Positions 1 through 48,130 of a DNA stretch of 64,000 nt are shown here, in pieces (position 1 is the stretch's first letter; each line of letters starts with the position of its first letter). The notes below the pieces were generated by a model. It did not search any database and had not been told where the DNA came from. It saw only the letters and a program-made list of their open reading frames with translations. Both the position numbers and the translations under genes were made by a program. This DNA is from a virus (taxonomy: Duplodnaviria; Caudoviricetes): IMG/VR virus record IMGVR_UViG_3300035201_000245, positions 2,107 to 66,106 of that record, one strand, 5' to 3'.

Positions 1-846
1 TCCTAAACCAAATACTGCACGACCTCTATTACTCTCTGCTGTTGTTCCTCCTGGTGGAACCATATATGAGAGAGTATCAAATTTTGTATTGTCTTCAAAT
101 GTTGTTCCGTGATCTTCTCCTATATCTGGAGCAAAACGTGATGCTGATGGTCCTTTATTACTAGTAGCACTTACATATGTTTGAATTGTCTTTCCTGTTT
201 CTTCCTGTAATACATTTCCAGGTGACTGACAACAAAGAAGAATAGTACTTGAAAGTTTCTCCAATCTTGCCGATGGTACTGTAAATGCTGCAGTATAAAG
301 TGCAGTATTACTTATGCGAGCATTACTAACATATCCAACAATACCTCTATTACTAGGAGAATTTCCCTGAGCTCCAACATATGCTTCATTAGAATAAGCA
401 GTAGTTAAATCAGAAGATGAACTTCCTGATGCTTCCAATACTCCATCTATAAAAATCTTTACTGCAGATCCAGAACGAGACATCGCAACATGATACCACG
501 TATCATTAGACATGCTAGATGAAGAAGTTATATCCAAATTCCAAGAACCACTACCATAATGCACCCTTCCTTCAAGTTTTCCTTGAGCATCTGCTAACCA
601 TATACCATTCTGACCGTTTTGATTACCAGTCTCCATAATAATATTACCTACAGCATCATCATGTGTTCCCAAACCACTCTTATAATACCAACATTCAAGT
701 GTAAAATCTCCTGTTCCCACCGCAAAATCATCGGATGCGATTTTTAAAAATATTGGTTTATTTCTACCAGTCTCAAAATTTACTGATCCATTAATAGCAT
801 TTGCACCACCTAATCCAGATACTCTATCAGATCGTAATATTCCCAT
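1..846 (-). CDS. Virion structural/fibre-associated protein with LamG/ConA-like domain (3' end beyond window); paralog of 1861..3522
   Basis: Not in ORF track. Manual translation from ATG at 846: MGILRSDRVSGLGGANAINGSVNF...FAVGTGDFTLECW...YMVPPGGTTAESNRGRAVFGLG. The ATG overlaps the upstream stop (TAATG). Confidence 0.85.
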   Translation of the reverse strand, partial: MGILRSDRVSGLGGANAINGSVNFETGRNKPIFLKIASDDFAVGTGDFTLECWYYKSGLGTHDDAVGNIIMETGNQNGQNGIWLADAQGKLEGRVHYGSGSWNLDITSSSSMSNDTWYHVAMSRSGSAVKIFIDGVLEASGSSSSDLTTAYSNEAYVGAQGNSPSNRGIVGYVSNARISNTALYTAAFTVPSARLEKLSSTILLCCQSPGNVLQEETGKTIQTYVSATSNKGPSASRFAPDIGEDHGTTFEDNTKFDTLSYMVPPGGTTAESNRGRAVFGLG

Positions 847-46786: not shown

Positions 46787-46915
46787 TTACCTTGCACATA
46801 CAGTTTTTTCCTCTGTATGCTTGATGCCTCTGTATGTGAGTTCAGAGACTTGCTTCTGACAAGTTTGCTTGTCATTGGTGTTGTATGTAACACCACGGTA
46901 GGTTACTTGTGCCAT
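46787..46915 (-). CDS. DUF4278-like small protein (42 aa)
   Basis: Manual translation MAQVTYRGVTYNTNDKQTCQKQVSELTYRGIKHTEEKTVCAR; duplicated (L/V)TYRG(V/I) motif; AGGAG SD. Confidence 0.8.
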   Translation of the reverse strand: MAQVTYRGVTYNTNDKQTCQKQVSELTYRGIKHTEEKTVCAR

Positions 46916-46948
46916 GTTGATACTCCTAAAGTAGTTGGATTTTTAGGC

Positions 46949-47125
46949 CCGTTCCTTTAGTCGTTTGCGTCCCAACACCCAGCTTCTGTAGAGTTTTTAA
47001 CAACTCTAATCAACTCAACCTTCTGTTCTTGAGAAACATTTCTCTTGTTGAATTTCTCTACGAGAGATTCAGCATCAGAGCAAGAAAGAGTTGATGCTAG
47101 AAGGAAAGGTATCATGGGATGAACG
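46949..47125 (-). ncRNA. Glutamine-II (Downstream-peptide)-like aptamer 2, with an ORF inserted in its P2 loop
   Basis: CGTTCA TCCCA-[ORF]-TGGGA CGCA AACGACTAAA GGAACG. Confidence 0.6.
46957..47115 (-). CDS. 52-aa small protein nested in the riboswitch-like RNA
   Basis: MIPFLLASTLSCSDAESLVEKFNKRNVSQEQKVELIRVVKNSTEAGCWDAND; GGAG about 10 nt upstream. Confidence 0.65.
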   Translation of the reverse strand: MIPFLLASTLSCSDAESLVEKFNKRNVSQEQKVELIRVVKNSTEAGCWDAND

Positions 47126-47128
47126 CTC

Positions 47129-47166
47129 CGTTCCGCGACTTACTTGCGGCCCCGAAGGGCTGAACG
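47129..47166 (-). ncRNA. Glutamine-II (Downstream-peptide)-like aptamer 1
   Basis: CGTTCA GCCC-TTCG-GGGC CGCA AGTAAGTCGC GGAACG: P1 CGTTC/GAACG, P2 with cUUCGg loop, CGCA core. Confidence 0.7.
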
Positions 47167-47191
47167 ATTGTGTTAATAATAACACAGTTAT

Positions 47192-47230: not shown

Positions 47231-47389
47231 TTAAACATTATTAACAAACCTATTCCATATTCCTAAAGCATGTTTATTATGATCACACAATTTCTGAGCC
47301 CAAATTCTTTCTGCAAGTGTTGTCTCTCTACCCAACTTGACTTTGCAAGCAATCTCTGTCAATCTTAGTCTGCTGTCTTTGCTTAACAT
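47231..47389 (-). CDS. Conserved cyanophage small protein (52 aa)
   Basis: Manual translation MLSKDSRLRLTEIACKVKLGRETTLAERIWAQKLCDHNKHALGIWNRFVNNV; overlaps the purN 3' end. Confidence 0.6.
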   Translation of the reverse strand: MLSKDSRLRLTEIACKVKLGRETTLAERIWAQKLCDHNKHALGIWNRFVNNV

Positions 47390-47897
47390 ACTTAATTGCC
47401 TCAGGTAGAATTGCGTATTCCTTTCTTTGAATTTCTTTTGTTAATGATTCTACAGTATCATCAGAAAGAATAGGAACCTTTGACTGCATAATTATCTCAC
47501 CACCATCCAATTCCTCATTAACATAATGAACAGTACATCCAGTATGAGTATCACCAGCATCCATTGCCTTTTGAATCACATCTAATCCTTTATGTTTGGG
47601 AAGTAATGATGGATGGACATTTATAATAGGACAATGAAATCCAGAAGGATTCTTAAGGACTCTCATATATCCTGCAAGAATAATAAGATCAACACGCCAA
47701 GCATCAAACAACTGAATCATCTGATCTTCATTCTTATGACTGATATGACAATGGGGGATTCCTAATTTTTCTGCTCTCTTTGCTGCTCCACACTTCTCTT
47801 TGTTGTGAATCATTAACACAACTTCATCCTCTCTACAAGTACGCACTATGTTCTCAAAATTTGTACCATTTCCAGAACACATTACGCCAAGTCTCAT
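47328..47897 (-). CDS. purN: Phosphoribosylglycinamide formyltransferase
   Basis: SGNGTNFE, LAGYMRVL, INVHPSLLP, GCTVHYVNEELDGG. Confidence 0.95.
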   Translation of the reverse strand: MRLGVMCSGNGTNFENIVRTCREDEVVLMIHNKEKCGAAKRAEKLGIPHCHISHKNEDQMIQLFDAWRVDLIILAGYMRVLKNPSGFHCPIINVHPSLLPKHKGLDVIQKAMDAGDTHTGCTVHYVNEELDGGEIIMQSKVPILSDDTVESLTKEIQRKEYAILPEAIKYVKQRQQTKIDRDCLQSQVG

Positions 47898-48130
47898 CTC
47901 TCGTACCCCTCCTTCCACTTACCCTTCTCATAATCATAATTTGGATGTGGTGCTGCAGAAACTACAGGATTTTTAGTTCTATTTGTTAATGTAATAAATT
48001 TATCTCCAGCAAAAGTTCCTGCAATATTTACAGAAATGTCATCACCATCTTCCCATATCTCATCACCACTCTTCTTTCTCATGTCGAGTGCTTTCTCTAA
48101 ATCATCAATAATCTTTTGAGTAATTTTCAT
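47894..48130 (-). CDS. Hypothetical protein
   Basis: Coupled ORF in operon. Confidence 0.65.
   Translation of the reverse strand: MKITQKIIDDLEKALDMRKKSGDEIWEDGDDISVNIAGTFAGDKFITLTNRTKNPVVSAAPHPNYDYEKGKWKEGYER

Follow-up and report, generated by a model that had tools for sequence, protein, structure and literature searches.

A probable glutamine riboswitch with two aptamer cores and an embedded protein-coding gene in marine T4-like cyanophages

INTRODUCTION

Glutamine riboswitches are described as ON switches that precede DUF4278/IF17 genes, DUF4278 being a domain common with the glutamine-synthetase inactivating factor IF17 (PMC6212724). In the Glutamine-I family (glnA RNA, Rfam RF01739), which includes the gifB/IF17 leader of Synechocystis, the elements follow the order CGUUCA-P2-CG(G/C)A-AGUA-P3-GAAG-GAACG, with loop E flanking P3 and a long-range capping pair. 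A loop E in the junction and a one-pair pseudoknot have been confirmed for the glnA family (PMC12510878). In the gifB leader, glutamine is proposed to melt a masking helix at the ribosome-binding site and so to turn on IF17 synthesis (PMC6212724). For the binding site, CGUUC, CGCA and GGAACGG are sufficient, and an aptamer of the Glutamine-II class (Downstream-peptide motif, RF01704; 6QN3) stays functional when split into two strands (PMC6698751). Tandem glutamine riboswitches have been reported (PMC2864571), glutamine riboswitches are present in a few cyanophage genomes (PMC9964418), and in a 2017 survey no more than two aptamers for glutamine came from cyanophages (PMC5473149). Here we describe a locus on the minus strand of a 64,000-nucleotide window, the whole stretch that was analysed, which is part of the 66-kb viral contig IMGVR_UViG_3300035201_000245. 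In this locus the leader of a small DUF4278 gene contains two glutamine-aptamer cores, one of which encloses a 52-codon open reading frame (ORF).

Riboswitches are, to our knowledge, held to be rare in phages. Tandem riboswitches, such as those for glycine, have two ligand-binding cores per leader, an arrangement thought to sharpen the response. In the cyanophage leader, rather than standing side by side, the two cores appear nested, with a shared Watson-Crick helix connecting them. Attenuation by leader peptides and translational coupling let a ribosome on a short upstream ORF determine which of two alternative downstream helices is formed. The upstream ORF here differs in that it is a conserved gene of 52 amino acids (aa) rather than a codon-biased leader peptide; the competitor is a metabolite aptamer and there is no terminator between the ORFs. 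The tag ORF of tmRNA is a translated ORF in a peripheral loop of a structured RNA. Homing-endonuclease ORFs in group I introns are likewise translated ORFs in a peripheral loop of a folded RNA (PMC3984707). As in those systems, folding and translation of the cyanophage leader must be separated in time; group I introns and tmRNA are, however, ribozymes and rescue RNAs rather than sensors, whereas here the ends of the ORF overlap the ligand-binding core.

The locus shares with Glutamine-I the order of its elements and, with the gifB leader, both its position before a DUF4278 gene and a strand adjoining the aptamer that can mask the ribosome-binding site (PMC6212724). Unlike the small P3 hairpin of Glutamine-I, P3 is long-range and encloses a second set of core elements as well as the 52-codon gene. 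The putative capping pair is of the C:G type (CGCA...GAACGG), like that of Glutamine-II, whereas Glutamine-I has G:C. The resemblance to Glutamine-II extends to CGUUCA-hairpin-CGCA and GGAACGG, to helix strands that flank GGAACGG, to a short DUF4278-type ORF downstream and to the possibility of two-strand assembly (PMC6698751). Glutamine-II is characterized by a pseudoknot between CGUUC and a GGAACG located in the loop of a 3' hairpin. Unlike in that class, the flanking helix here has a loop of at least 23 nt, far longer than that of the family, and overlaps P3 by two bases.

RESULTS

Two glutamine-aptamer cores in one leader

The region 47168-46913 of the minus strand holds the two cores. A preliminary description of this locus had listed two P2 helices, a 52-codon ORF whose ATG overlaps the second of them and a CGCA core formed by the end of that ORF; every one of these letters was recovered at its minus-strand position. 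The first half of the unit consists of a weak promoter-like site followed by CGUUCA, GCCC-UUCG-GGGC, CGCA-AGUA, AGUCG, C, GGAACGG and AG. The second half begins again with CGUUCA, continues with UCCC-AUG and the ORF, which ends in UGGGA-CGCA-AA-CGACU-AA, and closes with AG-GAACGG. A 23-nt spacer, CUUUAG-GAG, 7 nt, the AUG of a 42-codon ORF and a terminator form the 3' end.

Comparison loci were obtained from two DNA-pattern scans of IMG/VR and one protein scan. Chance matches were dropped (4 of 143 records, and 69 of 119 stretches, which were without aptamer context; 3 of the 50 stretches kept were also chance matches). A total of 181 loci were parsed end to end, and 94 distinct loci of the window's type were aligned (alignment A2). 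A blastn search located the region in 431 phage records, every one of them named as a cyanophage, and the layout occurs in these records and in well over 100 environmental phage contigs. The same element order was found in S-CAM8, S-SZBM1, S-H38 and S-RIM44, which represent four genera and in which two small coding sequences are annotated at this site. Among 139 context-bearing loci, 99 have the form seen in the window, 33 also have an ORF in P2 of core 1, one is compact in both cores and six are cut. The insert in P2 of core 2 is ORF-sized in 160 of the 181 parsed loci and compact in the other 21. A contig scan with a 15-base pattern gave 0 of 120 stretches with aptamer context; this pattern is too short for the result to have any bearing on cyanobacteria.

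P1 (CGUUC/GAACG) and a P2 hairpin directly after CGUUCA are both present twice in the window, and P2 covaries in both cores. In core 1, CGUUC (47166-47162) is invariant in all 94 sequences of A2, and the Rfam alignment of compact relatives makes it the 5' strand of the outer P1. Its proposed partner is GAACG at 46954-46950, the alternative partner being GAACG at 47133-47129. All four stem pairs of the adjacent GCCC-UUCG-GGGC hairpin (47160-47149) change on both sides in A2. CGCA, the third strand with the linchpin C, and AGUA, the 5' half of loop E, follow at 47148-47141; they are nearly invariant and align to CGGAAGUA of RF01739. GGAACGG with its linker AG (47134-47126) would supply the 3' strand of the inner P1 and the linchpin G. 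CGUUCA of core 2 (47125-47120), the 5' strand of the inner P1, pairs as a hairpin with GAACG of core 1 in the minimum-energy fold of a compact relative, locus L136.

P2 of core 2 consists of UCCCA (47119-47115), the last A of which is the A of the start codon, and UGGGA (46974-46970), which corresponds to codons W-D of the nested ORF. Four of its five pairs change on both sides, and variants include CCCCA/UGGGG, UCCUAUG/CAUAGGA and UCUAUG/CAUAGA. CGCA and the two A residues after it (46969-46964) would provide the inner core with its third strand and linchpin C. AAAG, the 3' half of loop E, is followed by the second GAACG and its linchpin G at 46958-46949, a segment that in relatives aligns to GAAGGAACG of RF01739. 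The loop E half is AAAG in the clade of the window and GAAG in most relatives, while GGAACGG is invariant. Each core has the two bases of the candidate linchpin pair, the C in CGCA and the G that follows GAACG, in the C:G version described for Glutamine-II (PMC6698751); they never vary and are thus without covariation. In core 1 of three loci (L049, L080 and L140), CGUUCA...CGCA is replaced by CGUUCG...UGCA, so that the A and C flanking P2 shift jointly to G and U; this joint change would fit an A-C / G-U pair lengthening P2.

A long-range P3 helix between the cores

AGUCG (47140-47136) in core 1 is complementary to CGACU (46963-46959) in core 2, about 170 nt away. The CGACU strand overlaps the last sense codon of the nested ORF and the first base of its UAA (46959-46957). 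This helix is 99.8% paired on A2, and its G-C pairs are replaced by A-U at one position in seven sequences and at another in one. Across the 181 loci we observed 22 strand combinations, all of them complementary, with one U-U mismatch among the 5-bp forms. AGUCG/CGACU is found in 127 loci, AGUCA/UGACU in 6, and AAUCG/CGAUU, AGACU/AGUCU and GGACGG/CCGCCC in one each; longer forms are the 8-bp AGCCGACU/AGCCGACU (22 loci) and AGCCGACA/UGCCGACU (7 loci). In the latter seven loci local mini-hairpins are broken and the cross-core pairing is kept. The possibility that AGCCGACU forms only a local mini-hairpin was rejected because AGCCGACA pairs with UGCCGACU across the cores. In locus L008, AGUCA is combined with UGGCU, a change that compensates the helix and turns the end of the nested peptide to WDANG.

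The flanks of this helix identify it. AGUA (47144-47141) stands directly before AGUCG, and AAAG (mostly GAAG in relatives) directly after CGACU. In all 181 parsed loci AGUA is confined to core 1 and G/AAAG to core 2, so that neither core has both halves of loop E. As a P3 between two loop E halves matches the glnA consensus and the Rfam reading of compact relatives described below, the whole can be read as one glnA-type aptamer. The covarying helix that was initially viewed as interlocked pairing of two aptamers does join the cores, and it is better read as the ordinary P3 of a single predicted aptamer composed of the 5' half of core 1 and the 3' half of core 2. The comparison shows the putative second core inside this P3 in permuted order, i.e. 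GGAACGG, a 3-nt linker, CGUUCA, the hairpin and CGCA.

A helix that may mask the downstream ribosome-binding site

The downstream gene (46915-46787, 42 aa; phrog_5049) encodes a DUF4278 protein (Pfam PF14105, 27.5 bits against a cut-off of 25.3, E 4.2e-6). Upstream of it, CUAAAG (46960-46955) and CUUUAG (46931-46926) are complementary, the latter adjoining the AGGAG at 46927-46923. The six core pairs of this helix are 96.3% paired on A2. Its third pair is GC in 39 sequences, AU in 38 and GU in 17, with no mismatch, and is tied to whether the nested ORF ends with UGA or with UAA. The helix was predicted in the minimum-energy folds of both the window and L136. In its extended form ACGACUAAAG (46964-46955) pairs with CUUUAGGAGU (46931-46922), which contains AGGAG. 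The alignment shows that ACGACUAAAG, besides its role in P3 and loop E, could pair instead with this segment, which holds the predicted DUF4278 ribosome-binding site. Because the masking helix and P3 share the two bases 46960-46959, the remaining bases being shared with loop E, the two pairings are mutually exclusive, as had been anticipated.

The preliminary description had also named CCUAAA (46947-46942) as a competitor for the same ribosome-binding site. Complementarity to UUUAGG is indeed present in the window. Across relatives, however, this pairing reached 66.4% compared with 65.9% in shuffled alignments (98 of 500 shuffles reached the observed value), and covariation was 0.050 compared with 0.051. 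We rejected this candidate, as neither measure was better than chance. No terminator was identified between the nested ORF and the downstream gene; 'attenuator' is therefore the wrong term for this arrangement, and any effect would be one of translational coupling.

The second GGAACGG is followed by a small hairpin. In about one tenth of the loci (L027, L043, L059, L062, L095, L105 and others) a conserved insert of about 28 nt, GGAUCC-stem-GAAA-stem-GAGAAGGUUAA, lies within this hairpin, between GGAACGG and CUUCAG.

The nested ORF is a conserved gene

The nested ORF (47115-46957, 52 aa) begins at the last base of the P2 5' strand, and its last codons together with UAA constitute CGCAAACGACUAA. 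It matches phrog_504 (E 1.7e-14), residues 1-52 aligning to positions 1-53 of the 53-position profile. Every one of the 134 loci whose core-2 P2 is long contains an ORF of at least 49 aa (49-66 aa; 132 with ATG and 2 with TTG), which always starts in or just after the P2 5' strand. The stop codon lies inside CGACU(G/A)A in 128 of these loci, in the P2 strand in four, earlier in one and later in one; in L039 it lies about 20 nt ahead of UGGGA.

The ratio of nonsynonymous to synonymous substitution rates (dN/dS) was determined for 99 distinct ORFs of 49-56 aa, without the longer ORF types and without six ORFs having other stops; the first three and last seven codons, which overlap the RNA core, were excluded. 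Median dN/dS was 0.26 in frame compared with 0.75 and 2.14 in the shifted frames. In addition, there were 0 stops in 4592 in-frame codons and 341 and 489 stops in the two shifted frames. From these data we conclude that the nested ORF, as judged by its pattern of substitution, is a real conserved gene, as the preliminary description had supposed. Cys12 of the protein is invariant, a second cysteine is Cys47, and the C-terminal WDAND is nearly invariant in the alignment. AlphaFold modelled a two-helix hairpin (predicted local distance difference test, pLDDT, 81.4). None of the 23 PDB matches listed had E ≤0.001, no Pfam family scored above its cut-off, and the protein atlas returned viral hypothetical clusters only. 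GGAG at 47129-47126, 10 nt before the nested AUG, could serve as its ribosome-binding site. The linker after the linchpin G is variable (AAU, GUU, AGC, GUA and others), so GGAG is not universal.

In a second type of locus the hairpin of core 1 also encloses an ORF, of 65-75 aa (33 of 33 loci); its stem covaries, and in all 33 cases the start codon is in one P2 strand and the stop codon in the other. One version (MLxLLLAFTLAHH..PYGWHMSCERF.., 65-68 aa; L027, L029, L031, L039 and others) is found about 210 nt upstream of CGCAAGUA. The ORFs nested in core 1 and core 2 have a hydrophobic N-terminus and a Cys...Cys pattern in common, and on this basis they may be old paralogues.

As 21 of the 181 loci are without a core-2 ORF, the switch can do without the gene. 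Marine RNA libraries (X2 and X3) contained contigs of relatives with an ORF-free compact core 2 (UCCC-UUCG-GGGA) and the 4-base linker GAUA. The four RNA runs consist of contigs; they thus attest that the sequence occurs in RNA libraries but give no measure of transcription, of transcript ends or of abundance, and stretches without coverage carry no information. Apparent joints of 46973 to 47127 in X2 and X3 (26 and 18 letters on the two sides) were considered as RNA processing; this was rejected, as they come from relatives with a compact core 2.

If the end of the ORF were conserved merely for the peptide WDAND, the complementarities of this segment would be by-products of coding. The near invariance of WDAND agrees with such an origin, but ORF-free compact loci keep the same nucleotides, the compensatory change of L008 alters the peptide, and the partners outside the ORF, AGUCG and CUUUAG, covary with its end. 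We regard this explanation as hardly credible.

A more serious alternative is that the P2 loop tolerates insertions and that the nested gene is a passenger, expressed regardless of the riboswitch and without regulatory coupling to it, the riboswitch operating on those RNA molecules that ribosomes are not translating. Core 2 is compact in 21 of 181 loci and both cores in one of 139; the inserts comprise several diverged protein types of 49-66 aa; the stop of L039 and the four stops in the P2 strand indicate that overlap with the core is not obligatory; and many ORF-bearing loci have other linkers in place of GGAG. However, a start at the P2 5' strand in 134 of 134 loci and a stop in the P3/loop E strand in 128 of 134 would be remarkably precise for neutral insertion. 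Furthermore, P2 covariation persists around the insert, the design is repeated in core 1 of all 33 loci of the second type, and a ribosome on the last codons would necessarily open P3 and the masking helix. Similarly, reading the ORF must open P2 and AGUCG/CGACU, in keeping with the earlier proposal that a translating ribosome would melt the second aptamer. On balance we consider a passenger gene improbable, though a real contender.

One nested aptamer or two in tandem

The Rfam gathering cut-offs are 35 bits for Glutamine (RF01739) and 33 bits for Glutamine-II (RF01704). The compact locus L136 scored 46.4 bits with RF01739, and the match took the outer reading, consisting of CGUUCA-P2-CGCAAGUA, P3 with a 41-nt insert, and GAAGGAACG. 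The outer reading of L306, L274 and L322 scored 41.4, 41.0 and 38.4 bits, respectively. Among the 16 compact loci scored it was taken in four of four with a 5-bp P3; L363, likewise of the 5-bp type, was left out of this set. The window misses the RF01739 cut-off because of its insert of about 170 nt and not because core letters are missing. With Glutamine-II the window scored 24.5 bits and L136 28.1 bits, both below 33, while core 2 of L322 alone reached 34.0 bits. For all proposed helices together, 98.4% of the cells of A2 are paired compared with 94.6% in shuffled alignments, and 10 pairs change on both sides. None of 500 shuffles reached any of five measures for the whole structure, and slid controls were 32-51% paired.

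Several observations weigh against a nested glnA-type aptamer that acts as a switch. The loci are related to each other, so the shuffle counts are not probabilities and the statistics are inflated; the diversity of compensated forms across lineages is the stronger argument. The window is without a glutamine-riboswitch match at the Rfam cut-offs, and at loose thresholds only its core 1 was seen (27.1 bits with RF01739; 24.5 bits with RF01704). Of the other 12 compact loci, all with a longer P3, five scored above the cut-off for core 2 alone (35.3-38.8 bits), these matches using a local mini-P3 in the 8-nt AGCCGACU type, and seven of the 16, again all with a longer P3, gave no Rfam match. The window's clade has AAAG where the RF01739 family has GAAG. 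Since none of the four P1 strands varies, covariation is silent on whether CGUUC of core 1 pairs with GAACG of core 2 or of core 1, and the minimum-energy fold of the window pairs it with GAACG of core 1, in tandem style. Finally, CUAAAG/CUUUAG flanks GGAACGG in the manner of Glutamine-II P2, and might thus be a constant element of the bound form rather than a switch.

Some of these points favor a plain tandem, in which each core closes its own P1 and AGUCG/CGACU is an extra bridge making independent aptamers cooperate, as in glycine tandems. The minimum-energy fold of the window, the sub-threshold matches to core 1 alone and the above-threshold matches to core 2 alone in five of 16 compact relatives are all of this kind, and core 1, being transcribed first, can fold by itself. 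The arrangement of loop E argues otherwise. AGUA abuts CGCA of core 1, G/AAAG abuts GAACG of core 2, and throughout the 181 loci the two halves never occur together in a single core. Judging from the family consensus and from PMC6698751, a loop E and P3 of the family type would put CGCA, P2 and CGUUC of core 1 on the helix of the second GAACG. In addition, the outer reading scores roughly 11 to 19 bits above core 1 of the window alone, despite its 41-nt insert, and in seven loci a AGCCGACA core 1 goes with a UGCCGACU core 2, the local hairpins being broken. We therefore think it unlikely that the cores form a plain tandem and favor the nested aptamer. The two readings differ only by a swap of identical strands, so both may occur.

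The transcription unit and its neighbors

The segment 47168-46737 of the minus strand is probably one small transcription unit of a marine T4-like cyanophage, with a two-core glutamine riboswitch as its leader. A candidate sigma-70-type promoter is located at 47204-47176 (TTGCAT at 47204-47199, a 17-nt spacer and TATTAT at 47181-47176, a TG preceding this second hexamer by two bases). RNA from this promoter would start at about 47168. The promoter scan of the window did not call this candidate upstream of core 1, and its first hexamer matches only 3 of 6 positions. In 79 of 134 relative loci, TTGACN-16..18-TANNNT ends 7-10 nt before CGUUC. An intrinsic terminator, a 10-pair stem followed by a T run, closes the unit at 46761-46737.

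One 361-nt contig of the poly(A) metatranscriptome run X2 covers 46828-47168 and then continues with 20 extra letters, which we take to be the reverse complement of a template-switch oligo. As weak evidence from a single contig, this would make A47168, which precedes CGUUC by two bases and lies 8 nt past TATTAT, the 5' end of the RNA. The adapter-like letters also trail another contig elsewhere.

Another, strong promoter-like site, TTGACC-17 nt-TATAAT (46750-46722 on the minus strand, 11 of 12 matches), overlaps the terminator of the unit and would serve the small gene that comes next (46702-46544, phrog_878). On the other side, a 52-aa ORF immediately upstream of the unit (47389-47231 on the minus strand, phrog_19028) overlaps the 3' end of the formyltransferase gene (ORF 47328-47918) by 62 bases in another frame. 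The cyanomyovirus genes PhoH, ThyX and formyltransferase were identified around the riboswitch site, and the window also contains a manA RNA. The manA RNA is full-length (RF01745, 25661-25469 on the minus strand, 161 bits, E 7.9e-43); this candidate riboswitch-like RNA is typical of cyanomyoviruses.

DISCUSSION

The comparison of cyanophage loci gives good support to a real and widespread RNA architecture, a glutamine riboswitch with an embedded gene, for which we infer a mechanism from the pairing potential of the leader. The alignments show 47166-47141 (CGUUCA-hairpin-CGCA-AGUA) and 46958-46949 (AAAG-GAACGG) as the two parts of one predicted glnA-type (Glutamine-I) aptamer. They also show the core-2 hairpin UCCCA/UGGGA, where it forms, closing around the 52-codon gene, the end of which would provide the CGCA, P3 and loop E nucleotides. 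Standard scans miss this layout because the gene sits inside the aptamer. We found no published account of a gene inside an aptamer or of cores sharing a P3 in the full-text literature, with Ames & Breaker 2011, Ren 2015 and supplements beyond reach.

With this layout, sensing of the host's nitrogen state through glutamine should be in competition with translation of the nested gene within a single mRNA. ACGACUAAAG would have three exclusive fates, i.e. in P3 and loop E of the ligand-bound aptamer, in the masking helix, or inside a ribosome finishing the nested gene. By analogy with known glutamine riboswitches, glutamine would stabilize the outer aptamer and free the downstream ribosome-binding site (ON). 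Folding of P2 and the cores would at the same time hinder initiation at the nested AUG, so that one sensor would have opposite outputs. Once at the last codons of the nested gene, a ribosome would open both P3 and the masking helix and in this way also free the downstream site. As both the aptamer and the ribosome fates free the site, high glutamine, and perhaps translation of the nested gene as well, would turn the IF17-like gene on.

We tentatively extend this scheme to a pseudo-symmetric two-site sensor with cores at both ends of the shared P3, in which, at high glutamine, the folded cores would clamp both ends of the gene or genes nested in their P2 loops (OFF) and release the ribosome-binding site of the IF17-like gene (ON), the ribosome on the nested gene being a ligand-independent second opener. 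This extension is possible, although the odds are against it. If correct, it would be a riboswitch that integrates metabolite level and translation in most T4-like cyanophages, tuning host nitrogen assimilation in the course of infection. The two-core design is directly testable with the compact natural RNA of the L136 type, which is about 100 nt long.

If the leader works as proposed, it would show that an RNA domain that binds a ligand can house a protein gene whose start and stop form part of the sensor, and that two aptamer cores can fuse via a shared helix. Cyanophages would then read the glutamine pool of the host and regulate an IF17-like factor accordingly, and through it perhaps glutamine synthetase, in the most abundant phototrophs of the sea.

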